Notes: a model not told the origin generated them from the sequence alone. A stretch of 64,000 bases of DNA from Rhodospirillales bacterium (GCA_038143065.1 JAYQLI010000035.1:736001-800000), one strand, 5' to 3'; counted from the first letter of the stretch, positions 9,206 through 60,096 are shown. Translations and numbers: made by a program.

Positions 9206-9690
9206 TTATTCTTTCCTGGTGGGTCAAGTACAAGGCACACTGACGTGCCATGCGCATAAATTTTTCCAGCAGTATCAACCAAACGCCCCTCCATAGAGAG
9301 CATGGTTCGTCCAGCGTGAACCACTCGGCCTTCAGCACGAAGCGGTCCCACATCAGGCATTACACCACGAGTAAAATTAACTTTTAAATCAAGGCTAGTG
9401 TAAGGATAACCAGCATCTATCATTGTATGACCAGCGCATCCCATACAGCTATCCAAAAGTGTAGAAATCCAACCACCGTGAACCCGGCCAAGAGGATTAA
9501 AATACTCAGCTTTAGGAATCCCCTCCCAAGCAACAAACCCCCTTTCAACGACTACAAGCCGAAAATCCAACGTGCTCGCTATTTTGGGATGCGGTAACTT
9601 TCCATCTCGAATAGCGCTCAGGAAATCAAATCCTGAATACTTTAATGCCTCCTCTATTGGGATAGCACCATAGGTTGGCGTTTCTGTCAC
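9202..9690 (-). CDS. PaaI family hot-dog thioesterase
   Basis: FNPLGRVHGGWISTLLDSCMGCA and YTSLDLKVNF. Confidence 0.88.
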   Translation of the reverse strand: MTETPTYGAIPIEEALKYSGFDFLSAIRDGKLPHPKIASTLDFRLVVVERGFVAWEGIPKAEYFNPLGRVHGGWISTLLDSCMGCAGHTMIDAGYPYTSLDLKVNFTRGVMPDVGPLRAEGRVVHAGRTMLSMEGRLVDTAGKIYAHGTSVCLVLDPPGKNK

Positions 9691-10586
9691 TCAGCAGCCT
9701 CGATCGTGTCTTCGAAGGTCTTAAAGAAGCGACTTGCTGTACCTTTCTGATTCTCATAGATCGATCCTTGCGATTTCGCATCGGGGAATGGCATCCGAAT
9801 AGGAACGTTCGCCATTCGAGGCATGGTGGTAGACTTTCCACGCACCATTCGAGCTTCCCAGGCGTTAAACTCACCCTTCATTTTCGCAAGAGGCCAAGCA
9901 TCGGCAGCAGCATACTCAGTAAGGAGCAATCTGCGCTGTCGATTTCCAGTATTTAAAGCTGAACCATGCACGGCACGTACGTGATGAATAGTCATAGACC
10001 CTGCAGGTGCAGTCAATTTATGGGCACCCGAAACATCCAAACCTATGGAAGTAGGATCGAAGGCCCCGCAGAAGCATCCATCGGAATGATGATCATAAAC
10101 GGGCCCCTTGTGGCTACCGGGCAGCATCAAGAGAGGTCCGTTGGATTCATCACAATCGTCCAACAAAATTCCCGTGGCCAACACATCATCATTTGTGTGG
10201 GGATAGAAGGCCCAATCTTGATGCCACTCAACAGGCGCTCCATAAGATGCCGCCTTGATATTCATCTTACCGCCATAAACCCTAATGTCTGGGCCAATAA
10301 GCTGGGCAACAATATCCGTAATATCTGTATCTCTGCAGAGGTCCCAAAAATATGGAACGTGATTGTAAGGCTCTTTGATGCGTCTCACCCGAGGATTATC
10401 AGGTCTGTGACTATCTTCTAAATCATACAGTTCATTATTCTGAGATACCTCACTTGCTCCAGAAATAATTACATCTGTTTGAGCACGCAGCTCATTCAGC
10501 TTTTCGGGACTTAGCACACCCTCAACTACAACGTATCCATCATCATGGTACTTTGTGATCTGCTCATCTGTCAGCTTTATGCCCAT
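9687..10586 (-). CDS. Phytanoyl-CoA dioxygenase (PhyH) family Fe(II)/2-oxoglutarate dioxygenase
   Basis: YHDDGYVVV, WHQD (HxD), NGPL..LPGSHK and HGSALN..R. Confidence 0.88.
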   Translation of the reverse strand: MGIKLTDEQITKYHDDGYVVVEGVLSPEKLNELRAQTDVIISGASEVSQNNELYDLEDSHRPDNPRVRRIKEPYNHVPYFWDLCRDTDITDIVAQLIGPDIRVYGGKMNIKAASYGAPVEWHQDWAFYPHTNDDVLATGILLDDCDESNGPLLMLPGSHKGPVYDHHSDGCFCGAFDPTSIGLDVSGAHKLTAPAGSMTIHHVRAVHGSALNTGNRQRRLLLTEYAAADAWPLAKMKGEFNAWEARMVRGKSTTMPRMANVPIRMPFPDAKSQGSIYENQKGTASRFFKTFEDTIEAAE

Positions 10587-10607: not shown

Positions 10608-12191
10608 TTATTCTTGTACGGATAGTCCTTCGTTGGCTAGGGCGCTTTTAATAAGTTCTATTGTTTCATCCACACCATATAGGGCAATAAAGCTACCCAT
10701 TCGCGGACCGGATGATTGTCCTAAAAGCACTTCATAGAGAGCTTGGAACCATTCTCGCAGATTTTCATACCCATGCGTTTTACCAACATGATAGACAGCA
10801 TTTTGCAACATCTCTGCAGACCGATCTTCCGCAGAAGCAAGTCTATCACTGAGATCAGCCATAGCGGCGCGTTCTGCAGCACTTGGAGCCCGATAGGCTT
10901 TTTCAGGTTTCACAAAGTCTCGATAATAAGCCAATGCATACCCTACCAAGCGATCCAACATTGGTGCTGTCTCAGGAGTAAGCTCCGGCGAATACCGCCC
11001 AATAAAACCCCATAGTGTTGCTTTGTCCTCTGCGTTGCAGACAGCCGCTAGATTCAAAAGAAGAGAGAAAGAAAAGTCTCCCTCTGTCGCCGGAGGGTTA
11101 CCACCATGAATATGCCATGATGGATTATCTAATTGTTTCTCTGGCTCCTGATTCCCAAAGCCCGCTAAATGTTGGCGATATTCGTCAACCGCCCGCGGTA
11201 TAACATCGAAATAAAGTCGTTTTGCGGCGGTAGGCTTTTGAAACATAAACATCGACAAGCTTTCAGGTGGCGCATACGCAAGCCATTCCTCCACAGAAAG
11301 GCCATTACCTTTTGATTTTGAAATTTTTCCACCTTCGTGATCGAGGAATAATTCGTAGGTGAATCCTTCAGGAGGTTTTCCGCCTAGGATCCTACAAATT
11401 GAGGAAGATAACTTGACACTCTCGATCAAGTCTTTTCCCGACATTTCATAATCAACGTCAAGGGCGAACCATCGCATGGCCCAGTCAGCTTTCCATTGCA
11501 GCTTGCAGTGCCCACCTGTGACAGGAGTTTCAATCAGTTTTCCGTTACTGGGATCAACATAAACGATCGTACCCGCATCTGGCCGTACTTCTTTTGCTGG
11601 TACTTGAAGAACCTCGCCCGTTTCTTCTGAAATTGGGAGAAATGGGCAATAGGTCTCCCTGCGCTCTTGGCCAAGCGTCGGAAGTATTACTTTCATGACT
11701 TTGTCAAACTGACGAAGCATCGCCATCAGAGCCTGGTCAAACTCTCCAGATTTGTAACATTCAGTGGACGATTTGAATTCATACTCAAATCCAAATTCGT
11801 CAAGAAATGCCCTCAGACGCGCATTATTATGAGCCCCAAAACTATCATGAGTTCCAAATGGGTCAGGTACTTGAGTTAGAGGTTTGTTTAGGTGTTTGGA
11901 TAACATCTCTTTATTGGGAACATTATCCGGAACCTTTCGCAGGCCATCCATATCGTCTGAAAAAGCAAAGAGCCGAGTAGGAATGTCTGATAATTCTGCA
12001 AAAGCACGCCTAACCATTGAGGTTCGTGCCACTTCACCAAAGGTACCAATATGAGGCAATCCCGATGGACCATAACCGGTTTCAAATAGAGCATAGCCTT
12101 TTTCAGACTTACTGTGCTCCATTCGCTTGAGCACTTTTCGTGCTTCTTGAAAGGGCCAAGCTCGAGCGTTTTCAGCATTTGCGTTCGGCAT
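10608..12191 (-). CDS. lysS: Lysine--tRNA ligase, class I
   Basis: [19 protein letters not shown] (HIGH-like), KISKSKGN (KMSKS-like) and [12 protein letters not shown]. Confidence 0.96.
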
Positions 12192-12444
12192 GGATTAGGA
12201 GATCCCGAGTTAGTGTCAAAGATCGGTTCCGAATAGCGACACACTGTTTCGGGAAAAACCGATACCATCGAAGGATTTATTAGTCGGAAGATGATATGTT
12301 GCCAAGCTGTACCGAAAAATAGTCTTCATCCTCATCTCAAACCCTCGAACCTTAAGATTAAATATTTCTCAAAAACTTGCCCTTCTGGTTCGTCCCAGCC
12401 AAATTGCATGTTAGATTCCGTATACCAGCGGAGTGGAGGCCCTG

Positions 12445-15400
12445 ATGCAGTTACGCAACGTTTCGCTCGAAGATAAATATATACTGGAAAACGGCAGTGC
12501 CTTTATGACAGGCACGCAGGCTCTGGTACGTTTACCAATGATACAGAGGCAGCGTGACCTCTCTGCCGGCTTAAATACTGCAGGCTACATTTCTGGATAT
12601 AGAGGTTCTCCACTCGGTGCGTATGACCAGCAACTCTGGTCAGCTCGTAAACACCTAGCTGCTCATCACATAACATTCCGACCCGGCATAAATGAAGATT
12701 TAGCAGCTACTGCCGTATGGGGTGCCCAGCAAATAGAACACTCTGGTGAAGCAAAATACGATGGAGTGTTTGGAATCTGGTACGGAAAAGGTCCAGGTGT
12801 GGATCGGTCGGGTGATGTATTCAAGCATGCAAATCAAGCCGGTTCAGCGCGACACGGTGGTGTTATCGCACTTGCTGGCGATGACCATATGGCCAAGTCA
12901 TCAACTGTTGCACATCAAAGCGAGTTTGCATTTGTCGATGCATTGATTCCAATTTTTTCACCTGCAGGGGTCCAAGAATTTTAGACTATGGTCTTCATGG
13001 CTTTGCGATGTCTCGCTTCAGCGGGCTATGGGCCGGATTTAAAGCAATTGGTGAAACAGTAGACTCATCTGCAGTTGTTGATCTGGACCCAGAGCGTGTT
13101 CGTCCATCCCTCCCCCATTTTGAAATGCCAGAAGGTGGGCTCAATAATCGTCAAATAGTCACCGAATTTTTGATGCTCGAGGAAATTCTGCATCGATATA
13201 AGCTCCCTGCAGCTAAGGCATATGCACGTGAAAACCGACTGGATCGTGTTGTTATAGGGGGCCCTGAAAGGCGAATTGGCGTAGTGACTGTTGGAAAGTC
13301 ATATCTTGATGTCCGGCAAGCTTTTGATGAACTTGGACTAACCGAAGCAGAGGCCGCACGTCTCGGCATCTCCTTGTATAAGGTCGCAATGCCATGGCCG
13401 CTGGAGACTGAGGGAGCGCAGGCGTTTTGTGAAGGCTTAGACCTCGTCATGGTTGTTGAAGAAAAACGGGGATTAATTGAGCCTCAACTTAAGGAAGCTC
13501 TCTATGGAATTAGCGCTGACCGACGTCCAGTAATAATTGGCAAGCAGGATGAAACTGGAGATGAGTTATTTCCTGCTTATGGCGAACTTACGCCTGGGAT
13601 TATAGCCCGCGCACTTGCCGACAGACTAAAAATTTCTGGCATAGACGAGCAAGGCCAACGTCGTATTGATGACGCTCTTGCACGATACGACAGACTGGAT
13701 GCCTCAGCATCTGGCAACCAACCACCTTCTATGAGTAGAACTCCATACTTCTGTTCTGGTTGTCCCCACAACACATCTACAAAAGTGCCAGAAGGTAGTC
13801 GTGCTGGTGCGGGAATAGGCTGCCATTATATGGCGTTATGGATGGACAGAGCCACTTCTGGCTTCACCCATATGGGTGCAGAGGGCGCCAACTGGGTTGG
13901 GCAAGCTCCATTTGTTGAAACACAGCATATTTTCCAAAACATAGGTGACGGGACCTACAATCATTCTGGCTTGCTAGCTATCCGGCAGGCAGCTGCTGCT
14001 GGCGTGAATATCACATACAAGATCCTATATAACGACGCTGTCGCAATGACAGGTGGTCAGCCTCATGACGGCACTTTAACTGTTGCAGAAATCAGTCGAC
14101 AGGTTCATGCCGAGGGGGCAAAGCGTATAGTCGTAGTAACAGACGAACCCGACAAATACCCCAGTGATTTTGGCTTCGCTCCCGGCGTAACAATTCATCA
14201 CCGCCAAGAGTTGATGAAGGTGCAGCGGGAATTACGCGAAACCTTGGGGTTAAGTGTATTAATTTATGATCAAACCTGCGCTGCTGAAAAACGTCGTCGC
14301 CGCAAACGTGGGACATTCCCCAATCCTCCAAAGCGCGCATTCATTAATGAGCGCGTTTGCGAAGGCTGCGGTGATTGCGGAGTGAAATCAAATTGTGTCT
14401 CAGTGGCTCCAATAGAGACTGAATATGGTCGCAAGCGGCGCATTGATCAGTCAGCTTGCAATAAAGACTATTCTTGTATGCAGGGATTCTGTCCTTCCTT
14501 CGTTACTGTGCTGAATGGAGAGCCAAGGAAGTCACCACCCGTTGCTGAAGATCCACAACGCATCTTGCCCGTTCCTGATCTCCCCAGCCTAGAAAAGCCC
14601 TACGGGGTCCTATTAACCGGTATAGGTGGTACAGGCGTTGTGACAGTGAACGCTGTATTAGCAATGGCTGCTCATCTAGAAGGTAAAGCTGCAACAGTTC
14701 TCGACATGGCAGGGTTGGCTCAAAAAGGTGGAGCTGTCTGGTCTCATCTTCGAATTGCTCAAAAAGCTGATGATCTGCATGCAACACGCATAGCATTGGG
14801 CGGAGCAGATTTGCTTCTTGGGTGTGATATTGTGACTGCCGCTCAACCCGACAGTATTTCAAAGCTAGAACGAGGGCAGTCCAAAGCTGTAATTAACACA
14901 TATCGGCAATTCACTGGAGACTTTACCAGAGATCCAGATTTTCAATTTCCAACTGATGAATTGAAAAACCGAATTGAAGGTGGCGTAGGACCAAACTCCG
15001 CCTTCTTCCTTGATGGGACTGAGCTAGCCACAAAGCTTATGGGCGATTCAATTGCAACCAATCTATTTATGACTGGATATGCATGGCAAAAAGGCCTTAT
15101 TCCTCTTGCACTCGATGCGATCTTAAAAGCAATTGAACTCAATGGTGTAGGCATCGAAATGAATACGCGTTCCTTCCATTGGGGGCGTATGGCAGCCTAC
15201 GACCTATCCAAAGTTGAGGCCGCGGCTGGGCCAAAACGAGAAATTAAAAAACCCTTAAACCTCGAAGAAACCATTGCAGATCGTATGGCGGAACTTACCG
15301 CGTATCAAAACACACGATATGCCAAAAAATATAAGGCACTCGTTAATAAGGTATCCGAAGCTGAGCAGGCAGTAGCGCCTGGTAAAACATCTTTAGCAAT

Positions 15401-15923
15401 GGCTGCAGCCCGATACGGGTATAAGCTTATGGCTTATAAAGATGAGTACGAGGTTGCGCGCCTCTATTCTGATCCAAAATTCCGGGAGCGCTTAGAGGCT
15501 CAATTCGAAGGTAATTTTGAGCTGCGCTTTAATCTTGCACCACCTCTCATGTCTAAGATTGATCCTGTATCTGGAGAGCCAATCAAAAAAGAATTCGGCC
15601 CATCCATGGAAAAGTGGTTCCGGCAGCTCGCGAAGCTGAAAGCCTTGCGTGGTACTAAGCTGGATATCTTTGGTCGCACGGAAGAGCGCAAGCGCGAAAG
15701 GGCATTAATTAGCGAGTATTCACAGCTGGTTGATAAGATTACAGACGAACTTACGAAAGAAAACTATCAGTTTGCTGTCGGTCTTTTGAGCATCCCCGAA
15801 CACATCCGAGGGTATGGACACGTCAAACTGCGCAACCTCGACATTGCTAAAGCAGAAGAAACCCGCCTTCTGGAAGCCTTTGACAACCCAGATGCTGTGA
15901 AGCTTACCCAGGCTGCCGAGTGA
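12445..15923 (+). CDS. Indolepyruvate ferredoxin oxidoreductase family protein, fused single chain (frameshift near 12980)
   Basis: GTQALVRL..SGYRGSPLG, NEDLAAT, RTPYFCSGCPHN, GDGT..HSG (TPP), CEGCGDC..C/CPSF Fe-S motifs and LMAYKDEYEVARL; GGAGG RBS before ATG 12445. Confidence 0.92.
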
Positions 15924-16639
15924 TGAAAACACTAGATGTTCAAGTATGGCGAGGTAATAAAAACGGAAGTTTTGAAAAATTCGAAGCTCCTGCTCAAGAA
16001 AATCAGACTGTCCTCGATGTAGTGACTTGGATACAGCGGAATGCTGATCCTAGCTTATCTTATAGGTTCGCGTGCAGAGTAGGCATGTGTGGATCATGTG
16101 CAATGACTGTTAACGGCCGGCCGCGCTGGACCTGCCGCACCCACGTCTCACGTGTTGCAAAAGATGGAAAATTAAAAATAGAGCCACTATTAAATCTTCC
16201 AATAATCAAAGATCTAGCTAGCGACCTTAAACCATTCTTTGATAAATGGAATGCAGCAAGAGGTACCTTTGAAGCTGCAATAAAGAGAGAAGATCCTCTT
16301 ATACCAATCTCTCCAGATCAACCGGAACGAGCAGCTGCAAACGCGGCAATTGAATGTATTAACTGTGCCGTCTGCTACTCAGCCTGTGACATGGTTAGTT
16401 GGAAGCCATCCTATTTGGGCCCTGCAGCACTAAATAGAGCATGGGCAGCATGGAACGATGTACGAAATGAAAATCGTTTGGATGTTTTAAAAGCTGTGTC
16501 AGATGATGCTGGATGCCATAACTGCCATAGTCATCAATCTTGTTCAGAACATTGCCCAGTTGGCCTGAATCCAACGATGTCTATTGCCGGTCTCAAACGG
16601 GCAACTTCAAAAGCCTTATTGAAAGGCGATCTGAAGTGA
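15923..16639 (+). CDS. Succinate dehydrogenase/fumarate reductase-like iron-sulfur subunit
   Basis: CRVGMCGSC ([2Fe-2S]), CINCAVCYSAC and CHSHQSCSEHCP clusters; TGATG overlap with the upstream gene. Confidence 0.9.
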   Translation: MKTLDVQVWRGNKNGSFEKFEAPAQENQTVLDVVTWIQRNADPSLSYRFACRVGMCGSCAMTVNGRPRWTCRTHVSRVAKDGKLKIEPLLNLPIIKDLASDLKPFFDKWNAARGTFEAAIKREDPLIPISPDQPERAAANAAIECINCAVCYSACDMVSWKPSYLGPAALNRAWAAWNDVRNENRLDVLKAVSDDAGCHNCHSHQSCSEHCPVGLNPTMSIAGLKRATSKALLKGDLK

Positions 16640-16968
16640 TAACTGCGAAATTATATTTAATTCAGCGAATATCAGCTCTGTTAATGGCTCCGCTTGTAAT
16701 TGCTCATCTCATTGGAATTATCATGGCGGTGCAAGGGGGTTTAACAGCAGACGAAATCTTAGGCCGAACACAAGGTTCCCTTGGGTGGATGTTCTTTTAT
16801 GGTGCCTTTGTGATTCTAGTCGCTGTTCATGGTACTGTTGGTCTTCGTTCAATTTTAATTGAATGGACACCGATTGCTAATCGTATTGTTGACGTCTTAA
16901 CTGCGTTTTGGCTCATTTCAGCGCTAATTCTTGGGCTTCGAGCCGTAGTAGCGGTAACATGGTTGTGA
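16636..16968 (+). CDS. Sdh-like membrane anchor subunit (SdhD-like)
   Basis: QRISALLMAPLV.AH and AVHG..GLR with three TM helices; GTGA overlap. Confidence 0.8.
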   Translation: MITAKLYLIQRISALLMAPLVIAHLIGIIMAVQGGLTADEILGRTQGSLGWMFFYGAFVILVAVHGTVGLRSILIEWTPIANRIVDVLTAFWLISALILGLRAVVAVTWL

Positions 16969-17306
16969 TGAAGCCCACCAGAAAACATTCAGGATATTGG
17001 GCCTTTTTAGTCCACCGCTTGTCTGGTCTCGGGCTTGCCCTCTTTCTTCCATTACATTTCCTTGCTCTCGGTACCGCCATTCAAGGCGCAGCCAAATTGG
17101 ACAGTTTTCTAGAATGGACCGAAAATCCAATAGCTAAATTTGCAGAGATAATTCTCGTGATACTTTTATCTGCTCATTTAACTGGTGGCCTGCGTCTGCT
17201 TGCTCTCGAGTTTTTACCATGGAGCGAGAGGCAAAAAACTTGGATATCCATTGGAGCTGGTATCTCCCTCGCAGCAGGCCTCGCAATGCTTTTTAATCTG
17301 ATTTGA
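16968..17306 (+). CDS. Sdh-like cytochrome b556 subunit (SdhC-like)
   Basis: HRLSGLGL..FL..H and AHLTGGLR.L; TGATG overlap. Confidence 0.82.
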   Translation: MKPTRKHSGYWAFLVHRLSGLGLALFLPLHFLALGTAIQGAAKLDSFLEWTENPIAKFAEIILVILLSAHLTGGLRLLALEFLPWSERQKTWISIGAGISLAAGLAMLFNLI

Positions 17307-17314
17307 GGGTAACA

Positions 17315-19075
17315 ATGGCTCAGATAACTCGATCTCGCGTTGATATCTTAATCTTAGGTTCCGGAGGGGCAGGTTTATTTGCGGCTCTTCATGCGGCAAA
17401 GGCAAATCCGGACCTCGAGATAGCTGTTGCTGTGAAAGGGCTGATGGGTAAGAGCGGCTGCACGCGGATGGTGCAAGGCGGCTACAACGTTGCATTAGAC
17501 CCTAGAGACAGTCTCGAACGACATTTCATGGATACAATTGTTGGAGGCAAATGGCTTCCGCATCAGGACCTAGCTTGGACGCTCGTGGAACAAGCAGTCA
17601 TTCGTATCCAAGAGTTAGAAAATGAACTTGGGTGCTTCTTTGACCGAAACTCTGATGGCTCTCTTCATCAGAAAGCATTCGCCGGCCAAAGCTTTGACCG
17701 CACCGTTCATAAAGGAGACCTAACCGGTATCGAAATTGTAAATAGGCTCATGGAAAATGTGCTGGCGTTGCGTGTGCAACAACTCGAAGAGCATCGAGCA
17801 TTAGCTTTAATCAAAGCAAAAGACGGCTCAGGCATTTCGGGCGTTATGATGACGGATATGCGCACCGGCGATTTCCACTTTGTACAAGCAAAAGCGGTTC
17901 TATTAGCTACAGGTGGAGGTCCAACGATGTACCTCTACCATACTCCATCTGGAGATAAGGCAAGCGATGGATACGCCATGGCACTTCGCGCCGGCCTTAG
18001 CCTTCGGGATATGGAAATGGTCCAATTTCACCCAACCGGGCTCCTAGCCGGACCAAATACCCGCATGACCGGGACAGTTCTGGAAGAAGGCCTACGAGGA
18101 GCCGGCGGATATCTGCTCAATGGAGAAGGCAATCGCTTTATGTTTGACTACCATGACCATGGTGAAAGAGCGACGCGGGACATTGTTTCACGTGCCATAG
18201 ATTCCGAAATGCGGGCGGGTCGCACAACACCGATGGGGGGTGTTTACATTGAAATGAAACACCTAGGTCCAGAAGCAGTTCGAACACAATTTAAAGGTAT
18301 GGTTGATCGCTGTAATGATTGTGGCTTTGATCTTGCATCTGGTCGTGTTGAGGTTGTTCCAACCGCTCATTACATGATGGGTGGAGTAGAATTTGAACCC
18401 GGGTGCACCACGGAAATTCCTGGACTTTATGTGGCTGGTGAAGACGCTGGAGGAGTTCACGGCGCAAACCGTTTAGGGGGAAATGGTGTTGCAAACTCCA
18501 CCGTTTTTGGTGGCTTGGCGGGGGATGAAATGTCAAAGGCTCTCGCGGCAAGACAGCACGACTGGTCGGATCCTGATGAGGCCGAGATTGATAATTGTGT
18601 TGCGACCGTCCTAGCTCCCTTTGGTAAACCAACTGGCGACGTCAACAGCATCAGAGAACGGTTATATACCTTGATGTGGGATGATGTCGGGATAATTCGG
18701 GATGCAAATAGCCTGGCAAGAGGAGCATCCAGCCTCTCAAGCCTTAAAGAAGAGTTAAAAAATACAGGCATTGCTGACACAGGTCGCGCTTTTAATCTTT
18801 CATGGCATGACTGGCTAAATCTAGAAAGTCAGATCCTCGCTTCAGAAGCTATTTGCGAGGCTGCGAGAGGGCGAGAGGACTCACGTGGCGCTCATTTTCG
18901 AAGTGATTTTCCAGAGACAGGTAACCTAATGAGCACTCATTTTACGAGTGTAAAAATGACATCCAATGGAGAACTCTCCGTTACCAGCAAGCCTGTTGAT
19001 TTTAATATAGTTAAGCCAGGAGATAGCTTGATTGATGACGATGCCGGCGCCCCACCGATACTCGCAGCTGTCTGA
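17315..19075 (+). CDS. SdhA/FrdA/TfrA-family flavoprotein, non-canonical
   Basis: GSGGAG FAD motif, QFHPTG, TRDIVSR, PTAHYMMGG, HGANRLGGN and EDSRGAHFR. It has KSGCT in place of RSHT. Confidence 0.9.
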   Translation: MAQITRSRVDILILGSGGAGLFAALHAAKANPDLEIAVAVKGLMGKSGCTRMVQGGYNVALDPRDSLERHFMDTIVGGKWLPHQDLAWTLVEQAVIRIQELENELGCFFDRNSDGSLHQKAFAGQSFDRTVHKGDLTGIEIVNRLMENVLALRVQQLEEHRALALIKAKDGSGISGVMMTDMRTGDFHFVQAKAVLLATGGGPTMYLYHTPSGDKASDGYAMALRAGLSLRDMEMVQFHPTGLLAGPNTRMTGTVLEEGLRGAGGYLLNGEGNRFMFDYHDHGERATRDIVSRAIDSEMRAGRTTPMGGVYIEMKHLGPEAVRTQFKGMVDRCNDCGFDLASGRVEVVPTAHYMMGGVEFEPGCTTEIPGLYVAGEDAGGVHGANRLGGNGVANSTVFGGLAGDEMSKALAARQHDWSDPDEAEIDNCVATVLAPFGKPTGDVNSIRERLYTLMWDDVGIIRDANSLARGASSLSSLKEELKNTGIADTGRAFNLSWHDWLNLESQILASEAICEAARGREDSRGAHFRSDFPETGNLMSTHFTSVKMTSNGELSVTSKPVDFNIVKPGDSLIDDDAGAPPILAAV

Positions 19076-19120
19076 AAAACCTGATACGTTCATCCTGACG
19101 CATTAGGCTGGAAGATAATT

Positions 19121-20083
19121 ATGATCTCAATATCTACTGTCGAGGCGGCGGCATATGATGCGATGTGTAAAGCTGCCATTGAAATTCCCGACGATTACCT
19201 AACTGGTCTCAAAGCGCTTGTCGCAACAGAACAAGGTGACCTATCCCACTTTGTTCTAGAGGCGATGCTAGAAAATTATGAGGCAGCGAAGGCCGACCGC
19301 CGCGCAATGTGTGCGGATACTGGGGTTCCAAGGTACTACGTAAAAACAGGCAATGAGGCTGTTATCGAAGGTGGGTTTGTTGCTATTGAAGCGGCACTTC
19401 GGGGGGCTTGTGCTCGGGCAACTCATGACGTGCCGCTTCGGCCAAATCGCGTCCACCCTCTTTCCCGACACGACAACAATAATAATGTTGGCCTGAACGC
19501 ACCAGAAATCGAATACTCCTTTGAACCCGATGCCGACTGGATTGAAATAACAACAGTCCATAAAGGAGGTCTCTTCGGTACCGATTACCGGATGCTTTTT
19601 CCTGCAGATGGCACTGATGGGATAAAACGCTTCTTTCTAGATGCAATCATCGCATTCGGAAAACGAGGTTTAGCCTGCCAACCCGCAATAATCGGCATTG
19701 GTATCGGTGGATCTAAAGACACGTGCATGGTGCTAGGTAAACAGGCTGCCTGCTTACGTGCTGTTGGAGAGGCAAATCCTGATCCTGAAGTTGCTGCATT
19801 AGAAGCAGAGTTGAAAGAACTTGGTAATTCGGTAGGAATGGGTGCAATGGGCTTTGTTGGCTCCTCCATGGTCGTCGATTGTCATATAGAATGTGGTTTC
19901 ACCCATACGGGTGGTATGCCCATTTCAATTCATGCTTTTTGTCTTTCTTCGAGACGAGCAACAGCTCGAATTTACGCCGATGGAAGCGTTCAACTTCGCT
20001 CCGAGCCAAATTGGTTCACCCCGTATATGCGCAGGAATGAAATATCATGGCAGCAAGTGGAAAAATCCAAAAAGTCCGCCTGA
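19121..20083 (+). CDS. Fe-S hydro-lyase alpha subunit (class I fumarase/L-tartrate dehydratase family)
   Basis: MCADTG, LRPN.VHP, ACQPAIIGIGIGG, G.GAMGFVG and AFC; three cluster Cys retained. Confidence 0.87.
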   Translation: MISISTVEAAAYDAMCKAAIEIPDDYLTGLKALVATEQGDLSHFVLEAMLENYEAAKADRRAMCADTGVPRYYVKTGNEAVIEGGFVAIEAALRGACARATHDVPLRPNRVHPLSRHDNNNNVGLNAPEIEYSFEPDADWIEITTVHKGGLFGTDYRMLFPADGTDGIKRFFLDAIIAFGKRGLACQPAIIGIGIGGSKDTCMVLGKQAACLRAVGEANPDPEVAALEAELKELGNSVGMGAMGFVGSSMVVDCHIECGFTHTGGMPISIHAFCLSSRRATARIYADGSVQLRSEPNWFTPYMRRNEISWQQVEKSKKSA

Positions 20084-20724
20084 ATGCTCCCATTGCAGAC
20101 TCAGACATAGCTGCGTTGGAAATTGGGCAAGTCGTTTATCTCGATGGCTTGATTTATACAGGGCGAGAGGGTGTTTACAATCGTGTTCTAGCGGAAGGCA
20201 AAGCACCGCCAGTTGATCTAAAAACACTTACAAACGTAAATTTTCATTGTTCTCCTGCAGCGGCTAAGGATACTGACGGAACGTTTCGCGTGGGCGCCGT
20301 GACAGCTACAGCTAGCTTTCGCTTCTCTAAATGGCTCCCTCGCTGGTTTGCTGAAACAGGCTGCAAAGTCATAATTGGCAAGGGCGGAATGAGCTCATCA
20401 GATTATCAATCAGCTTTCGTACCAGCAGGGGCTGTTTATTTGACTACAGTTGGATATGGCACCGGTGCTTTACTCGGCAGAGGGATAAAAAAAGTTGAAG
20501 CTGCACATTGGTTAGATGAACTGGGAGTTGCGCAAGCAATGTGGGTCCTCCGGGTGGAGAATTTTGGGCCCCTGCTCGTCGAAAGTGATCTGCAAGGCCG
20601 CAGCCTTTTTGAAGAAAATAACGCCGAGGTTAATGGAAAAATAGCCAAGCTCTATGATGGGCTAAAGGCACCTAGCCTTTCACGTTACGGCGAAACCGAC
20701 GATAAAACGAAGGAATTAATCTAG
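20047..20724 (+). CDS. Fe-S hydro-lyase beta subunit (fumarase/tartrate dehydratase beta family)
   Basis: LEIGQVVYLDG.IYTGRE, FHCSP, IIGKGGM and LG..QAMW...VENFGPLLV..D..G. Confidence 0.87.
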   Translation: MAASGKIQKVRLNAPIADSDIAALEIGQVVYLDGLIYTGREGVYNRVLAEGKAPPVDLKTLTNVNFHCSPAAAKDTDGTFRVGAVTATASFRFSKWLPRWFAETGCKVIIGKGGMSSSDYQSAFVPAGAVYLTTVGYGTGALLGRGIKKVEAAHWLDELGVAQAMWVLRVENFGPLLVESDLQGRSLFEENNAEVNGKIAKLYDGLKAPSLSRYGETDDKTKELI

Positions 20725-21566
20725 GCAAACTCCTGAGAATGCCGGCTTTCTTCCTCCCTATAATTTCTAGCATATCTCTCAATCGCACGCTTGTGCACTG
20801 TTAGAGAGTCAGGATCGAGTTCTACTTTAGGACGCGGCAGATGTTCAAAGTTGCCAAATCGATCTTCACCTCGTACGAGCATTGCACATGGCTTCTCTGG
20901 TAATTTTCCTCTCAGGCTTGGAGAAACAAAATTCATACCAAGTCCAACCCTTCTCTCGGTTGATCGATTGGGCGCCGATCGATGTAAACAAAGACCGTGG
21001 TGCATGGAAAATTGACCTGCTTGCAAGGGCATGAGTGTGCCATCAACTTTTAGATCATCTGTTATTGATTGAGCAGCGCGATTAACACTGTGTTCTACGA
21101 CATGCACAGCATGACGCATTTGTGAAGGCCGACCGTTAAATGTTAAAGCTTCAAGACACCCTGCCTCCTCACTTGCATTTGTGAGCGCTATCCAAACAGT
21201 AACTTCTTCTGGAGGTGTCAATCCGTAATAAGTCGAGTCTTGATGCCAAGCTGTTATTGCCGGGTACACAGGATCTTTAATAAAAAAAGTACTGGTATAA
21301 ATCATTATATCTGGCCCGATTAAAGCCTCAATCGGATCTAAGATACGAGGATCATGAGCTAGGTCGGCTACCCACGGAAGGCAGCAATGGTTCATAGACC
21401 TGAAGTTGAAATCTTTAGCATGATTGACTGGTGCGCCAAGCCAATCCTCAAACCGCATCAACCCTTCCTGACACCGCTTTAACTCCTCAGTAAGCAAAAG
21501 GTTGATAGGTGATAAGAAGCCATTATGATTGAAAAAATTTATTTGTTCATTTGTTAAACTAGTCAT
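20721..21566 (-). CDS. PhyH family Fe(II)/2-oxoglutarate dioxygenase
   Basis: FNHNGFLSP, FFIK, WHQDSTYYG, WIAL and HRSAPN..RR. Confidence 0.87.
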   Translation of the reverse strand: MTSLTNEQINFFNHNGFLSPINLLLTEELKRCQEGLMRFEDWLGAPVNHAKDFNFRSMNHCCLPWVADLAHDPRILDPIEALIGPDIMIYTSTFFIKDPVYPAITAWHQDSTYYGLTPPEEVTVWIALTNASEEAGCLEALTFNGRPSQMRHAVHVVEHSVNRAAQSITDDLKVDGTLMPLQAGQFSMHHGLCLHRSAPNRSTERRVGLGMNFVSPSLRGKLPEKPCAMLVRGEDRFGNFEHLPRPKVELDPDSLTVHKRAIERYARNYREEESRHSQEFA

Positions 21567-21784
21567 GACACCATCAATCCCACGGCTCACCAGACGAAAA
21601 TAGAGCACTTAAATCAAGCGGATTTTTATCCTTCGAAGAGGAATAGATATTACTTGCTGGATATGACATCGGCAGCAAAGAATTACATAAATTAGAACTC
21701 CCAAAAGATCATTGTGACCGATGCTTGCACGACGGCGCCGGTCCGTCCATCCTTACTTGATATTCCTTTAAATATTTGGTGCAC

Positions 21785-22984
21785 ATGTCCCTCACCCACA
21801 TCTTGGTTCCTGTTTTTGCGGCTGTTGCAATGCAGGCGCTTCCAACTTTTGCTAATCTGGGCCCAACCACCCTGGCATCTGAAATTATCCCTGCTCTGAA
21901 TTTACCTGGGATTGCAACGAATGCTTATGTGACAGGGCTCTATTCTATTGCAACATTGACTTCTTTCGTTGCGGCCGCGTTTGTTTTAAAGCACGGACCA
22001 ATCCGAGCAGGTCAATGGGCACTAAGTTGTTACTTCTTAGGTGGACTTATTATTTTCGCTTTTCCCCATCCCATCAGCTTCTGCTTCGCGGCCTGTTTAT
22101 ATGGCGCTGCATATACTATGCCGATCCCTCTGGGGGCTCACATTCTTATAAATCACACACCACCTCACATGAGAAATACTCTATTTGGCATTAGACAAAT
22201 GGGAGTTCCGATAGGGGGACTTGCTGCAGGTATGTGTTTCCCATTAATGGCGGAAGCATATGGCTGGCAATTAGCAATACTTTTCGCCGCATTGGCTTGT
22301 CTTAGCCTTGCATTGGTTATTCAATTAATTCGGTCTCAGTACGACACCGAACGACAGCCAAAAAGGCAGCTTTTTATATCTAATGGCCAAGGCCCAATTT
22401 CAGTAATGCAACATGCCCCAAGAATGCGGCGACTGTGTTTTGCAGGAATGTTATTTGCTGGGGCAGAGGTCACCGCTGTCGCTAATATTGTTTTCTTCCT
22501 ATCGCATGACGTCGGGTGGTCATTAACTTCAGCAGGCCTAGCATTGAGTATCCTTAGTTTAGGTGGAGCTATTGGCCGTCTTTTTTGGGGACTTGTAGCC
22601 GATCGTCTCAGAAATAACACCAATATGCTGGGGTATCTCGGGATAGCAATATTTGGGTCAATGATCGCTCTTGCGGTTTGGAGCGACGATGCCCCTTCGT
22701 TGGTTTATGTAGCCGCATTCTGTGTTGGAGTAACAGCAGGAGGATGGACAGGAGTTGGCATTGCCGAAGGTGCACGTTTGGCAGGAAAATCTGGTGCAGT
22801 GGCAGGAACGGCAGCATTAACTCAATTCATGTTTTTAGGTGTTGTTCTTCTTCCAATGATGGCTGGAATAGCGCTAGCCTTAGGAACAACTTATCCTTAT
22901 GTTTTTGCTATGGTCGGGGCACTCAGTGGGCTTGGCGGCCTATCCTTACTTACGATGCCGCCTGAACATACTAGATCCACTCCA
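21785..22984 (+). CDS. MFS transporter, first unit; reads in frame into the second unit
   Basis: About 12 hydrophobic segments; RNTLFGIRQMGVPIGG and GRLFWGLVADR. Confidence 0.8.
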
Positions 22985-24177
22985 ATGCAGAAAATTCCTT
23001 GGACCCCGCTTTTACTCACAATGCTCACCCAAGCTGCGGCTACAATGGCGGCATATACCTTATCCACTGCCTCTCCTTATATTGCTCCCGACTTAGGCGT
23101 TGAAAATGAGGATGTCGCACAACTAGTAGCTGTCGTCTATTTATTGGGGGCTATGTCAGCGATGACAGTGCCCCCTTTATTCATCGCTTTGGGGGCATGA
23201 CAATTTCCATAGCCATCTGTGTTGCAACCGCCGCAATGCTATCTATTGCATCGTTTGCCTCTTCCATTGGCATACTGACGTTAGGCGCCCTCAGCTTGGG
23301 CGTTTTATACGGGTCTACTGCTCCATCAAGCAGCCATGTGCTAGCACCTCTTACATCTGAAAAAAGAAGGAATTTTGTATTTTCGGTTCGACAAATTGGC
23401 GTACCTCTGGGAGGAATTCTTGGAGGATTATTAGTACCACCATTGATCTTGATTGGCGGTTGGCGGATTGCATTTCAGGCCCAACTCATATTTGCACTGG
23501 TGATGATATTTGCAATTTTTCTTGTCCGTTCTCGATATGACCACGGACGCGACCGTAACCGAAATGTTTGGAGCTTAAGTGGACCTATTCGGCTTGTGGG
23601 ACTTCTGCGCGAACTACCCGAGATAAGACCTCTCGCAATTGCCGCTTTTGTGTATTCGGGTGCTCAACTGTGTTTTGGAGCATTCATTGTTACACAACTT
23701 GTCCGGGTCTATGGTCAGGACGGATATCACTTTGCCAGTGCCGTCGCACTGGTGGCATTTCAATTATCTGGGATAACTACGCGAATAGTGCTTGGTGTAA
23801 TTGCTGACTCATGGATATCGGCTCGCTGGCTTCTTGTGGCCCAAGGTTTTTTAATGACACTCTCCGCTATAGTTGCTGCAGGTTATGATTCAAGCTGGCC
23901 CTATTGGCTAATAGTAATTAATTGTGCTCTCGCTGGAGCAACAGCAAGCGGTTATACAGGACTTGCTTTTGCAGAATTTGTGCGTATGGGAGGCCCCAAG
24001 CGGACCGCTGAAGCAACTGGCTTAGGAACAGCCCTAATGTTCTTTGGTGTAGCTGCAATGGCCCCTCTTTTTCGTCTTGGGATTGATATCTTTAACGGTT
24101 ACGCCATCCCATATTTTTTGGTCGCTGCGCTAACAGCAGCCAGTGCATTACTTCTAGCAATCGGAACACGCCGATGA
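22985..24177 (+). CDS. MFS transporter, second unit (1-nt deletion near 23180)
   Basis: MQKIPW..QAAATMA; RNFVFSVRQIGVPLGG and RIVLGVIADS. Restoring one T joins this start to ORF 23197-24177. Confidence 0.8.
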
Positions 24178-25021
24178 CTTTTGCTAAACTCACCCCTCAA
24201 TTGTTAATAGATAATGATCACATGGTTGGCTCTTTGTTTGTTAAAGAGTGTCGACCACTGAACCCAACCCAATTGACCACTCCAATTCTTATGGTGCATG
24301 GATCAAATCATGGATGGTGGGCTTGGCGGGTTTGGCAGCCTTTCTTTGCTGCTGCCGGATGGCCAACATACGCATTATCTCTTAGAGGTCATTATGGCTC
24401 TGCCCCGGTCAACGAAAATGATTTCTTAAACCTTAGCATGTCTGACTATGTCGAAGACGTTGCTTCAGTGGCGCGCTGGCTTGGCAAGCCTCCAGTTCTT
24501 ATAGGCCACAGTCTGGGTGGTATAGTAGTTCAAAAGGCGGCAGAGACGATATCTTCAGCAGCTATCGCTCTTATTGCTTCTATTGGTCCGTCAGCCATTG
24601 GTCGCCAAAGACCTGGACCGCCTCCCCCATGGACAAGCCTGTTTTTCCTAGCAAGGCAGAAGCACTCGAACGTTGGATGTACGACCCATGGCCTGAAGAA
24701 CGCTTTGATCAATTTTACGAATGTCTAACCCCTGAATCTCCAGGGGTATTGGCCACATCTGGGACAGGATTAACCGACGTCAATGCAGAATTAATAAAAT
24801 GTCCTGTCCTTTGTGTAGGAGGCTCAGAAGACAAAAGCTATGTCCCAAAAGCGGAAAAACTTGCAAAAATCTACAAAGCTGATTGGTTTGAGCAACCCGA
24901 CGCAGGACATGACATGATGTTAGAGTCTGCATCTTTGGATGTCGCACAGCAAATTAATCAATGGCTGATTGGAAAATTAGGCTTAGAACGGTCATCAAAA
25001 ATCCAAGCGATTAAGCCATAA
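24174..25021 (+). CDS. Alpha/beta hydrolase (frameshift in the C-run near 24625)
   Basis: MVHGS.HG.W, LRGH, GHSLGG nucleophile elbow, GGSED and AGHDMM. Confidence 0.85.
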
Positions 25022-25098
25022 TATTTCATATGTCATTGGCTGCAGCTAAAACTGGATAGATTGAAACCTCATTACCTCAAAAAGAAGGTCACCCTTAC

Positions 25099-25890
25099 TT
25101 GAATATATCAAACCCAAACTGGAGATATGTTCGTCTCAGACAGTCTGATGATATTGCCGTTGTTACGTTCGATCGAGGCGACGACATCAACGCACTGTCC
25201 CTTCAAGCAATGACCGAGCTAACTGAAGCTGCCAACCAGATACAATCCGATCTCAACATATCGGCAGTTGCTTTAGTTGGAAGCCCAAAAGCCTTCTCAG
25301 CAGGACGCGATCTAAAAGATCCTGCTCTCGATCCACGCCAAAAATCAACCTTGTTGGAAAAACGACATATAGCGGGAGCTGGTTCTCGGCTTTGTAAAGC
25401 CTGGAACGAAATTGAACAATTCACCGCTTGCGGCATCGAAGGTTTTGCAATTGGTGGCGGGGTGGCTTTAGCTGTATCTTTGGATTATCGGGCAGTTGGA
25501 AGATCTAGCCATTTCAGAGCACCCGAAACCGCTTTAGGACTCTCTATGAGTTGGGGGTCAATACCAAGGCTAGTAAATCTCATTGGGCCAGCGCGCACTA
25601 AGCAATTTCTAATTCATGCAAATCAGCGATTTTCAGCTGAAGAAGTTTATAAATGGGGACTAGTCCAAGAAGTTGTTGATGATGGGGACGCTGCCAAAGC
25701 TGCTATATCAGCCGCTAAAAAGGCTGCTAAAATCCCTCCAGTAGCAGCTCGGATGGTCAAGCGGGCTATCGATTCATATGCAAACGCCTTGTCGGATGCC
25801 ATCATTCATATGGACACCGATCAAGTGCTTTTAACAGAAAATGACCTAGAACACCTAGAAGCGGTGCATACTTTTCTGGCAAAAGACTAG
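25099..25890 (+). CDS. Enoyl-CoA hydratase/isomerase family protein
   Basis: NAL, AFSAGRDL, GFAIGGG..LA..D.R and PE..LG. Confidence 0.88.
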   Translation: MNISNPNWRYVRLRQSDDIAVVTFDRGDDINALSLQAMTELTEAANQIQSDLNISAVALVGSPKAFSAGRDLKDPALDPRQKSTLLEKRHIAGAGSRLCKAWNEIEQFTACGIEGFAIGGGVALAVSLDYRAVGRSSHFRAPETALGLSMSWGSIPRLVNLIGPARTKQFLIHANQRFSAEEVYKWGLVQEVVDDGDAAKAAISAAKKAAKIPPVAARMVKRAIDSYANALSDAIIHMDTDQVLLTENDLEHLEAVHTFLAKD

Positions 25891-25951: not shown

Positions 25952-26500
25952 ATGCCCTTCCGTTTTAGCTACATTGCAGCCGTCTTTGCCGCTGCTGGCG
26001 TTTCCGGTGGTTCTGCAGCAGCCCAGGATCTCGAAAATACACTTTACCTTGATGTTGATGGAGGTCGCGTAACGATTGAAATGCGCCCAGACGTAGCTCC
26101 AATGCATGTGGCGCGAATTAAAGAGCTAACACGTCAAGGTTTTTATGACGGCCTTACTTTTCATCGCGTAATTGATGGCTTTATGGCTCAAACAGGTGAT
26201 CCTAGAGGTGATGGCACCGGGGGATCTGGACAAAACATTACTGCGGAATTTAACCAAATGCCTTTTGAACGTGGTGTTGTCGGAATGGCACGCTCACAGA
26301 ACCCAAACAGCGGTGACAGTCAATTTTTTATTATGTTTGAAGCCGCTCCACACCTTAACGGTCAGTATACAGCCTGGGGACAAGTTGTTGATGGCATGGA
26401 GCACGTTGACGGCATCAAGAAAGGCCATGCCGCAATGAATGGATCTGTGCAGGATCCAGATAAAATATTGAAAATGCAGGTAGCTGCTGACGCTAAATAA
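25952..26500 (+). CDS. Periplasmic cyclophilin-type peptidyl-prolyl isomerase
   Basis: Signal peptide; FYDGLTFHRVIDGFMAQTGDP, GMARS, SQFFI and YT.WGQV. Confidence 0.93.
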   Translation: MPFRFSYIAAVFAAAGVSGGSAAAQDLENTLYLDVDGGRVTIEMRPDVAPMHVARIKELTRQGFYDGLTFHRVIDGFMAQTGDPRGDGTGGSGQNITAEFNQMPFERGVVGMARSQNPNSGDSQFFIMFEAAPHLNGQYTAWGQVVDGMEHVDGIKKGHAAMNGSVQDPDKILKMQVAADAK

Positions 26501-54767: not shown

Positions 54768-54908
54768 ATTATTTCTCCTATTGATTTTAAATCCAGTCAA
54801 ATGGCCTTTTTATAGATACATCCATAACCGTATCGACTGGTGGAGCAATTTCAACTCAATGAGCTGTATACCAGAAGCTTTAGCATTGGTTGCTATACCG
54901 GCCCTATA

Positions 54909-60093: not shown

Positions 60094-60096
60094 TTG

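Follow-up and report, generated by a model that had tools for sequence, protein, structure and literature searches.

The closest described relatives of the system considered here are complex II, as represented by FrdABCD and SdhCDAB of E. coli and Sdh1 of M. smegmatis (PDB entry 7d6v), and the iron-sulfur (Fe-S) hydratases of the class-I fumarase and tartrate dehydratase type. The system itself is a module of six genes at positions 15920-20724 of a 64,000-nucleotide DNA stretch from a Rhodospirillales bacterium (GCA_038143065.1 JAYQLI010000035.1:736001-800000; this whole stretch is referred to below as the window), which combines a four-subunit, complex II-like dehydrogenase with a two-subunit hydratase. 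Comparison with homologous loci of other proteobacteria points to a 3-sulfopropanoate:quinone oxidoreductase and a sulfoacrylate hydratase that would together feed sulfonate breakdown, an assignment to which we give about an even chance of being correct.

Recruitment of this flavoprotein family to a carboxylate other than succinate has a precedent in TcuA, an FrdA/SdhA-family flavoprotein that oxidizes tricarballylate and passes the electrons to the membrane Fe-S partner TcuB; that system differs from the module in its partner protein and in having no set of SdhB, SdhC and SdhD, no hydratase and no link to sulfonates. TfrAB is a soluble enzyme that uses the thiols coenzyme M and coenzyme B, whereas the flavoprotein of the module, which scores below the TfrA cut-off, is joined by quinone-directed partners of the SdhB, SdhC and SdhD type. 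For complex II itself, work on E. coli FrdA His44 mutants is said to have established that covalently bound flavin (FAD) is needed for efficient succinate oxidation.

Among the hydratases, the fumarate hydratase of M. jannaschii (MjFH, PDB entry 7xky) has two carboxylate clamps, the members of which include Gln61 and Thr81, and mutating the carboxylate-binding residues abolished its activity, according to a preprint (bioRxiv 10.1101/2022.09.03.506457). On the sulfonate side, HpfX and HpfYZ of Enterococcus gilvus are likewise enzymes derived from the succinate branch (succinate-semialdehyde-dehydrogenase-like and succinyl-CoA-synthetase-like) that act on sulfonate analogs (PMC11489063); they make 3-sulfopropanoate in fermenters, whereas the module would consume it in respiring proteobacteria. 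The same article (iScience 2024) says of the breakdown of 3-hydroxypropanesulfonate and 3-sulfopropanoate by bacteria that it “has not previously been reported”, and its Discussion cites a thesis according to which Roseovarius nubinhibens degrades 3-sulfopropanoate “via sulfoacrylate and sulfolactate”; a review of January 2026 (PMC12890257) notes that the mechanism in Bilophila “remains unclear”. No gene assignment for 3-sulfopropanoate degradation was found in the open-access full-text literature searched. Finally, homologs of the sulfolactate mineralization enzymes SuyAB and SlcC/ComC and of the exporter TauE recur as neighbors of the module, the proposed product of which, sulfolactate, is the substrate of that pathway (PMC12421959); none of these genes is found within the window, and the module would act upstream of them.

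A coupled operon of complex II-like and fumarase-like genes

Analysis of the open reading frames (ORFs) together with Pfam and NCBIfam domain matches confirms that the six genes form an intact, translationally coupled operon on the plus strand (15920-20724). A preliminary description, made from the sequence alone, had proposed the gene order B-D-C-A followed by a split hydratase pair, with overlapping or near-adjacent stops and starts throughout; both points are borne out, consecutive genes either overlapping or being separated by at most 46 nt. The genes are the following.

15920-16639, plus strand: SdhB-like Fe-S subunit, starting at GTG 15920 (239 aa) or ATG 15923; Pfam Fer2_3 and Fer4_17/8
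16636-16968, plus strand: SdhD-like membrane anchor, probable start GTG 16636, ~110 aa; weak Sdh_cyt match, 27.6 bits
16959/16968-17306, plus strand: SdhC-like anchor of the cytochrome b556 type, ~113-115 aa; Pfam Sdh_cyt, 43.5 bits
17303-19075, plus strand: SdhA/FrdA-like flavoprotein, 586 aa from ATG 17315; FAD_binding_2 and Succ_DH_flav_C
19121-20083, plus strand: class-I Fe-S hydratase alpha subunit, ATG 19121, 320 aa; Pfam Fumerase, 230.8 bits
20047-20724, plus strand: class-I Fe-S hydratase beta subunit, ATG 20047, 225 aa; Pfam Fumerase_C, 83.4 bits

The SdhB-like start overlaps the stop of the upstream gene of the indolepyruvate-ferredoxin-oxidoreductase (IOR) family (window positions 15920-15925), GTG 16636 overlaps the SdhB-like stop, and the two hydratase genes overlap by 37 nt. 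The mechanically delimited ORFs of the SdhD-like and SdhC-like proteins begin at 16540 and 16908, respectively; the SdhD-like ortholog of Paracoccus versutus is 110 aa long, in agreement with the length given above for the window protein. The flavoprotein ORF begins at TTG 17303, and its probable start, ATG 17315, is preceded by GAGGG. A scan of positions 12000-22000 for promoters and terminators gives no excess over shuffled sequence (11 sites vs 13.4 and 7 vs 9.4, respectively).

The Pfam matches on the first four ORFs make up the complete complex II architecture, namely a flavoprotein, an Fe-S protein and two Sdh_cyt anchors, and none of the module ORFs attains an NCBIfam equivalog cut-off. 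For the flavoprotein, the best NCBIfam model is TfrA (NF004900, residues 12-548), with 494.6 bits vs the cut-off of 718; the scores are 434 bits vs 567 for TIGR01812 and 340 vs 727 for the SdhA model. The SdhB-like protein passes the cut-off of the broad subfamily TIGR00384 (181 bits vs 88) and stays below those of all equivalog models, and the SdhC-like protein reaches 49.7 bits vs 52.3 for TIGR02970. Three cysteine motifs of the SdhB-like protein (CRVGMCGSC...C, CI.C..CY..C and C.....C...CP), which presumably bind the [2Fe-2S], [4Fe-4S] and [3Fe-4S] clusters, respectively, are kept across 66 family sequences. Likewise, two histidines of the SdhD-like anchor are kept across 70 sequences and the motifs HR.SG and L..H..GG.RLL of the SdhC-like anchor in 72 sequences.

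Alignments of the flavoprotein to 7d6v_A and 2b76_A reveal that Gly52-Cys53 replace the histidine that carries the covalent FAD (FrdA His44, SdhA His45), and that Glu261 occupies the position of FrdA Thr244. The residues Q58, H243, T245, E262, R265, R292, H356 and R390 are kept, the last seven of which align with FrdA H232, T234, E245, R248, R287, H355 and R390. Accordingly, six of the seven residues of the FrdA dicarboxylate site (H232, T234, T244, E245, R287, H355 and R390) are present, the exception being Glu261 in place of T244. Cys53, Glu261 and Glu262 are invariant in all 15 homologs compared (70-82% identity), and one further homolog (P0001, 586 aa) is 98% identical to the window protein. 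Thus, relative to complex II, the module retains the domains of the four subunits, the three Fe-S motifs and the anchor histidines, and differs in the B-D-C-A order, in the Gly-Cys pair at the site of the 8-alpha-N3-histidyl-FAD histidine, in the glutamate at the Thr244 position, and in its association with a hydratase and, frequently, with genes of sulfonate metabolism; the altered motifs that had been noticed in the dehydrogenase are therefore real and family-wide.

The hydratase subunits align end to end with MjFH (E-value of 1.7e-52 for alpha and 1.3e-28 for beta) and score below the equivalog cut-offs for both fumarase (alpha, NF004885, 206.7 bits vs 276; beta, NF004708, 126.6 vs 269) and tartrate dehydratase (TtdA, 156.2 vs 365; TtdB, 120.9 vs 264). 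In the alignment to 7xky_A, the alpha subunit has C64-A65-D66 at the fumarase motif C-Q-D, with Ala65 at the position of MjFH Gln61-alpha; in the alignment to 7xky_B, the beta subunit has T-A-S-F-R at the fumarase motif T-T-S-x-R, with alanine at the position of Thr81-beta. Three cysteines aligned with the cluster ligands, the aspartate (D62 in MjFH, D66 in the window) and the catalytic threonine (T80) are kept, as are the carboxylate-clamp residues Arg102-alpha, Arg32-beta, Arg84-beta and the lysine of the GKGG motif (MjFH Lys104), in a comparison that covers the clamps apart from MjFH Gly147-alpha. Hence, compared with MjFH and TtdAB, the module hydratase has the same alpha and beta fold domains, cluster cysteines, aspartate and threonine, and alanine at two clamp positions. 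The change of substrate-binding motifs claimed for this enzyme holds as well and is preserved among the loci of the same arrangement (type 1, defined below), with the alpha motif C-[A/G]-D in 33 of 33 and the beta motif TATAS.R in 34 of 34.

Conserved synteny and sulfonate-linked neighbors

Related loci were collected by scanning species-representative genomes with the motifs DMEMVQF and GCTRMVQG; the scan gave at least 596 confirmed matches, and the best 80 loci, from Alpha-, Beta- and Gammaproteobacteria, were kept. The motif with the cysteine was itself a search pattern, so that its presence in the 80 loci is by construction. A homolog search with the flavoprotein retrieves thousands of relatives; among the top 120, which share 69-98% identity with it, the only names in use are “FAD-binding protein”, “L-aspartate oxidase” and “fumarate reductase flavoprotein subunit”. 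Hydratase genes lie beside the flavoprotein and Sdh-like genes in 68 of the 80 loci; because this pairing is kept, the arrangement is not due to chance, and the dehydrogenase and the hydratase are inherited as one module.

The module comes in two arrangements. Type 1 (35 loci) has the order B-D-C-A-alpha-beta of the window, with a hydratase 67-77% identical to that of the window, and type 2 (33 loci, mostly in Burkholderiales) has the hydratase genes between C and A, with a hydratase 27-37% identical to that of the window. The type-2 hydratases retain the fumarase motifs C-Q-D (28 of 28) and T-T-T-S (33 of 33), and one type-2 alpha subunit exceeds the NF004885 fumarase cut-off (305.6 vs 276). 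The hydratases of the two types look unrelated, yet the flavoproteins of both are equally close to that of the window (64-76% identity; e.g., L076 8506-9998 and L060 8484-9998). As for the remaining 12 loci, seven are on contigs that end within ~1.3 kb of the flavoprotein gene, one (L059) has scattered genes, and four (L001, L041, L058 and L073) have B-D-C-A and no hydratase gene over 5 kb or more downstream. In a tree of the flavoproteins (79 loci and the window), L041 and L058 group apart, on a branch shared with L028, L031 and L077, and L001 and L073 fall within the type-1 clade. The window flavoprotein is itself placed inside the type-1 clade, to which L006, L011, L012 and L015, all linked to SuyAB, belong as well. 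A tblastn search of plasmids gives matches in 18 records, with identities of 60-67% in 14 of these, and Cupriavidus, Methylobacterium, Paracoccus and Sulfitobacter are among the carriers.

For the analysis of neighbors, all ORFs of the loci were clustered, family representatives were annotated, and the presence of each family was counted per locus; families without a Pfam match (22, 27, 35, 37, 41 and many others) were taken as probable antisense ORFs of high-GC DNA and excluded from the counts. The recurrent neighbors are listed below, the LysR gene being one that directly adjoins the module.

LysR regulator: 35 of 80 loci
TctC-type, i.e., tricarboxylate-type (TTT), binding protein: 28 of 80 loci
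Split UxaA-type (SuyAB-like) pair, 93 aa + 391 aa, either member: 23 of 80 loci
Thiamine pyrophosphate (TPP) enzyme: 24 of 80 loci
Ldh_2 family (ComC-like) protein, nearest model L-sulfolactate dehydrogenase: 21 of 80 loci
D-2-hydroxyacid dehydrogenase: 21 of 80 loci
TauE: 18 of 80 loci, with a second TauE family in 4
GntR regulator: 14 of 80 loci
SsuA-like binding protein: 9 of 80 loci

At least one of four sulfonate markers (SuyAB-like, Ldh_2/ComC-like, TauE and SsuA-like) is present in 36 of the 80 loci and, among the loci with at least 5 kb of sequence on both sides, in 24 of 38 (type 2, 16 of 16; type 1, 8 of 18; others, 0 of 4). Chance co-location seems unlikely, the markers being too rare per genome; this is our own judgment and not the result of a control count on random windows. 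Genes for SuyAB, ComC-like proteins and 2-hydroxyacid dehydrogenases are each present in 15-17 of the 33 type-2 loci vs 3-7 of the 35 type-1 loci, and in type 1 the commonest sulfonate marker is TauE (7 of 35 loci vs 4 of 35 for SuyAB). The rarer neighbors include a CuyA equivalog (551 bits vs 450), a SoxC-like sulfite dehydrogenase just under the cut-off (399 bits vs 420), class-III aminotransferases, a 4-hydroxybutyrate-dehydrogenase-type iron-containing alcohol dehydrogenase (Fe-ADH) in L080 (645 bits vs 500) and, beside the module of L024, TauE and a SucCD-like pair together with a SauS equivalog (768 bits vs 600). At a distance of 4-7 kb from the module, four loci (L012, L020, L023 and L066) encode a (methyl)malonate-semialdehyde dehydrogenase of the CoA-acylating type (TIGR01722, 701 bits vs 448.5).

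An extensive context is that of the type-1 module on plasmid pTAV3 of P. versutus, in which the flavoprotein and the hydratase alpha subunit are 62% and 71% identical to those of the window, respectively, and have the same motifs. The gene order there is ABC transporter, module, YeiH, NIPSNAP, TauE, LysR, Ldh-family oxidoreductase, hydroxyacid dehydrogenase, TTT transporter, GntR, alcohol dehydrogenase, short-chain dehydrogenase/reductase and hisD-like dehydrogenase; further on come small and large UxaA-family (SuyAB-like) genes, a sulfate-exporter-family gene and a sulfite oxidase. The representative of the SuyB-like family is 66% identical to the large UxaA-family protein of pTAV3, which is encoded beside the sulfate-exporter gene. 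Judged by these genes, the pTAV3 module sits in a C3-sulfonate island. On a plasmid of Sulfitobacter sp. THAF37 (L082), the module is flanked by genes for a TPP enzyme, TauE, LysR and TTT proteins, and a gene annotated as 3-sulfinopropanoyl-CoA desulfinase (24403-25575) is found ~10 kb away. The gene table of pTAV3, which is incomplete, also contains an additional annotated sdhD/sdhC pair ~10 kb from the module (L081 934-1691), next to which the table shows neither sdhA nor sdhB. Flavoprotein phylogeny and conserved neighbors, which the preliminary description had named as informative comparisons, thus both favor a link with sulfonates.

A module of matching composition is induced in a published proteome, that of P. 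wurundjeri grown on sulfofucose vs glucose (mBio 2025; PMC12421959, supplement 2). The values below are differences of log2 label-free quantification (LFQ) intensities, with negative numbers standing for higher abundance on sulfofucose.

Fumarate reductase iron-sulfur subunit, 26.6 kDa: -5.5
Hypothetical protein, 12.6 kDa: -4.3
Fumarate reductase flavoprotein subunit, 64.35 kDa: -9.9
L(+)-tartrate dehydratase alpha (TtdA-like), 34.7 kDa: -6.1
L(+)-tartrate dehydratase beta (TtdB-like), 24.6 kDa: -7.3
LysR-type regulator, 33.1 kDa: -8.4
Hypothetical protein, 36.2 kDa: -6.1
SsuC-like permease, 33.0 kDa: -5.8
ABC ATPase, 29.0 kDa: -9.8

These proteins are a consecutive run in the supplement. The induction of this module is ~20- to 1000-fold and is accompanied by that of an Ssu-like transporter. 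In the same table, the canonical SdhA (65.3 kDa, +0.46), SdhB (+0.45) and class-II fumarase FumC (-0.02) are unchanged, and the authors file the induced cluster under fumarate/tartrate metabolism (PMC12421959).

Surroundings of the operon in the window

The genes that surround the module in the window differ from the recurrent neighbors of the related loci and are as follows.

12433-15923, plus strand: fused IOR-family gene with a 1-base frameshift near 12975
20721-21608, minus strand: PhyH-family Fe(II)/2-oxoglutarate dioxygenase (Pfam PhyH, 71.7 bits), convergent with the hydratase beta gene, with a 4-nt overlap
21776-23200, plus strand: MFS transporter (Pfam MFS_1, 133.8 bits; TIGR00895, 44.5 bits, far under the cut-off)
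12433-15923, 38999-41655, 29071-31029, 24174-25021, 43866-44507, 45317-46396, 47813-49784, 50281-51285 and 54237-54800: regions with split or truncated genes

Matches of the IOR-family gene to NF009588/NF009589 cover positions 10-189 in one frame and 199-1161 in another. Given that no IOR match is found in the 80 loci and that the window copy is frameshifted, this gene was rejected as a conserved part of the pathway; its stop/start overlap with the SdhB-like gene, by which the two genes are translationally coupled, is seen in the window only, none of the 80 loci having an IOR gene nearby. A role of this enzyme in forming 3-sulfopropionyl-CoA, with a sulfonated 2-oxoacid as the starting compound, would be entirely speculative. 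The MFS transporter has a weak likeness to aromatic-acid/H+ symporters and is followed by a second, N-terminally truncated MFS ORF (23197-24177). The PhyH, MFS and hydrolase genes were likewise rejected as conserved partners, with weak matches in L006 (MFS, ~30%) and L070 (hydrolase, 28%) only among the 80 loci. Two PhyH-family ORFs and one TauD-family Fe(II)/2-oxoglutarate dioxygenase ORF are found within 25 kb (9687-10586, 20721-21608 and 33972-34745, all on the minus strand); the TauD-like ORF scores 162 bits vs 313 for taurine dioxygenase. The window (25952-26500) and the Rhodospirillales chromosome L008 (16239-16790) have in common that genes for a cyclophilin-type peptidyl-prolyl isomerase, an alpha/beta hydrolase and an enoyl-CoA hydratase are found close to the module, which hints at shared ancestry of the two chromosomal neighborhoods. 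No canonical sdhCDAB is found within the 64-kb window. The window also encodes a class-I lysyl-tRNA synthetase, which, like the nearest relatives, hints at an alphaproteobacterial source.

About a dozen genes in the window are split or truncated, including those for the IOR-family protein, the essential alanyl-tRNA synthetase (AlaRS), hydantoinase A, an alpha/beta hydrolase, Iso_dh, acyl-CoA dehydrogenase, CoA transferase and CoaBC. The two junctions that were read (IOR near 12975 and AlaRS near 40080) fall at A/T homopolymer runs, which suggests assembly indel errors rather than gene decay. With gene breaks at this density, selection cannot be deduced from the mere fact that the 4.8-kb module is intact. 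The last part of the window, 56001-64000, has a GC content of 0.37-0.40 vs ~0.46 elsewhere, with no ORF of at least 150 aa listed past 55856, and may be foreign or non-coding DNA.

Candidate substrates and alternative readings

The preliminary description had proposed that the conversion of succinate to fumarate and malate is copied here on a succinate analog, a claim that gains support from the complex II-like and fumarase-like domains, the scores below all equivalog cut-offs, the changed substrate contacts and the joint inheritance of the two enzymes. It had further held that the substrate cannot be read from the sequence. The comparative context narrows the choice to a sulfur-substituted propionate, one of the candidates it had named, and most likely to 3-sulfopropanoate: the sulfonate-linked neighbors, the pTAV3 island and the induction of a matching module on a sulfosugar together point to a C3-sulfonate. 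The substrate, the direction of the reaction and the product are thus what we infer from these observations. Specifically, the membrane-bound, four-subunit complex II homolog would oxidize 3-sulfopropanoate (-O3S-CH2-CH2-COO-) to (E)-3-sulfoacrylate, and the electrons would pass via three Fe-S clusters to quinone at the two-subunit anchor, which probably contains heme b. The two-subunit [4Fe-4S] hydratase would then add water to sulfoacrylate, the likeliest product being 3-sulfolactate and, by our own analogy with L-malate, (R)-3-sulfolactate. In the relatives, although not in the window, SuyAB would cleave sulfolactate to pyruvate and sulfite, after racemization of the SlcC/ComC type if needed, and the sulfite would leave through TauE. 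The 4-hydroxybutyrate-dehydrogenase-like Fe-ADH and the class-III aminotransferases would, on our reading, funnel 3-hydroxypropanesulfonate and homotaurine, which can be regarded as the sulfonate counterparts of 4-hydroxybutyrate and gamma-aminobutyric acid, into 3-sulfopropanoate.

Several observations weigh against this assignment. In the window, no sulfonate gene adjoins the module, the neighbors being the frameshifted IOR-family gene and the PhyH, MFS and alpha/beta hydrolase genes, and the nearest sulfonate candidate is the TauD-family ORF 13 kb away; only 8 of the 18 type-1 loci with long flanks carry a sulfonate marker. A gammaproteobacterial type-1 subclade (L017, L019, L043, L047 and L062) has none of the four markers; in varying combinations, its members carry a LysR gene, an equivalog of tartrate dehydrogenase (546 bits vs 470) and an ABC transporter of the Liv type, and some have an Fe-ADH, a glutamine-synthetase-like gene and a TRAP transporter upstream. 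This subclade may act on a different substrate. The replacement of threonine by glutamate at a substrate contact is not an obvious fit to an anionic sulfonate, and type 2, which keeps the glutamine and threonine of the fumarase clamps, has the strongest link with SuyAB, so that the residue changes of the window hydratase are not required for the sulfonate association. The P. wurundjeri cluster matches the module by annotation, subunit mass and gene order and not by sequence, so that its orthology is an extrapolation from these features. Furthermore, the sulfofucose route as described in PMC12421959 yields sulfolactate and does not pass via 3-sulfopropanoate; therefore, the induction would be gratuitous (e.g., triggered by sulfolactate or sulfite), or else the module would have another role.

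A first alternative keeps the substrate and changes the hydration: the variant hydratase would add water to the sulfonate-bearing carbon, and the resulting 3-hydroxy-3-sulfopropanoate would collapse to malonate semialdehyde and sulfite, as alpha-hydroxysulfonates do spontaneously, so that the six genes would achieve desulfonation without O2 and without SuyAB. This route is unlikely, though the most probable of the alternatives, and equally unlikely is its corollary that the module is a self-contained, O2-independent machine for C-S cleavage that delivers the electrons of 3-sulfopropanoate to quinone, with Cys53 possibly forming an 8-alpha-S-cysteinyl-FAD, a linkage that we know of in no complex II enzyme. 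It is compatible with the minimal conserved unit, which consists of LysR and the six genes, SuyAB being absent from the vicinity in the window and in many type-1 loci; with the prevalence of TauE over SuyAB among type-1 markers; and with the alteration of both clamps in type-1 hydratases, one of them beside a cluster-ligand cysteine. The semialdehyde dehydrogenase of TIGR01722 4-7 kb from the module would also fit, but these MmsA-like genes occur in just 4 of the 80 loci, one of which (L012) has SuyAB as well. Moreover, regiochemistry cannot be told from sequence, the SuyAB, ComC-like and 2-hydroxyacid dehydrogenase genes of numerous type-2 and some type-1 loci speak for sulfolactate, and the sole pathway in print has sulfolactate as an intermediate, as quoted in the Discussion of PMC11489063. 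If this alternative were true, hundreds of proteobacterial species, some of them marine, would share a new mechanism of desulfonation from which respiratory energy is gained.

It is unlikely that the module, while linked to sulfonates or sulfite, serves another compound or the reverse direction, such as sulfosuccinate, 3-sulfinopropanoate, or sulfolactate dehydration followed by reduction of the enoate. Loss of the flavinylation histidine is typical of fumarate-reducing rather than succinate-oxidizing enzymes, which would suit the reverse direction, but the flavoprotein has Gln58, presumably an SdhA-typical residue in place of the glutamate of FrdA (the alignment partner, 2b76_A, is a chain with the E49Q mutation), and the carriers are aerobic or facultative heterotrophs. 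The TTT-type binding proteins adjoining the module in 28 of the 80 loci would suit the tri-anionic sulfosuccinate, for which no described pathway was found in the literature searched, and the desulfinase gene of the Sulfitobacter plasmid, at a distance of 10 kb from the module, would suit 3-sulfinopropanoate. The strong induction on sulfofucose, the route of which gives sulfolactate and not 3-sulfopropanoate, is compatible with another sulfur compound; against reversal, P. wurundjeri is reported to release sulfite from sulfofucose rather than to excrete a reduced sulfonate (PMC12421959).

Still less probable is a sulfur-free analog or hydroxy-dicarboxylate as the substrate (methylsuccinate/mesaconate, tartrate, D-malate or succinate derived from 4-hydroxybutyrate), with the sulfonate genes brought together in catabolic islands. 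The Liv-type ABC transporter and the tartrate-dehydrogenase equivalog that accompany the module in the gammaproteobacterial subclade fit this possibility, as do the fumarase clamp residues of type-2 hydratases, one of which passes the NF004885 cut-off, and the interpretation of the induced cluster by the authors of PMC12421959 as fumarate/tartrate metabolism. However, SuyAB-like, TauE, SsuA-like, CuyA and SauS genes recur across very different lineages and plasmids, genes for methylsuccinate or itaconate metabolism (CoA transferases, citramalyl-CoA lyase) are not prominent among the recurrent neighbor families, and the induction, of ~20- to 1000-fold together with an Ssu-like transporter, is on a sulfosugar vs glucose (PMC12421959).

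The weakest case is that of genuine isoenzymes for conditions such as low oxygen or sulfite stress, the module being a second succinate:quinone reductase or fumarate reductase accompanied by a dedicated fumarase: despite the complete complex II architecture, six of seven dicarboxylate-site residues, and the cluster ligands, catalytic aspartate and threonine of the hydratase, it is very unlikely because every equivalog cut-off is missed, the flavinylation histidine, reportedly required for efficient succinate oxidation, is absent, and 14 plasmid records carry the module with at least 60% identity. In addition, alanines replace the equivalents of Gln61 and Thr81, both of which are positions where mutation abolished MjFH activity (bioRxiv 10.1101/2022.09.03.506457), and the canonical SdhA, SdhB and FumC of P. 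wurundjeri coexist with the module and stay constant while it is induced (PMC12421959).

If the assignment of the module to 3-sulfopropanoate oxidation and sulfoacrylate hydration is correct, the module would, to our knowledge, set a precedent among complex II enzymes with four subunits and a link to quinone, none of which has so far had a physiological substrate besides succinate and fumarate, and it would explain a strongly induced cluster that was left under “fumarate and tartrate metabolism” in a published proteome (PMC12421959). The module occurs in cultured strains, namely Paracoccus versutus, Cupriavidus pauculus, Achromobacter xylosoxidans, Bordetella petrii and Afifella pfennigii. Given that 3-sulfopropanoate arises from homotaurine and from the abundant pool of sulfoquinovose and 2,3-dihydroxypropane-1-sulfonate (DHPS), these genes are a concrete candidate set for a step that recent papers call unreported or unclear.

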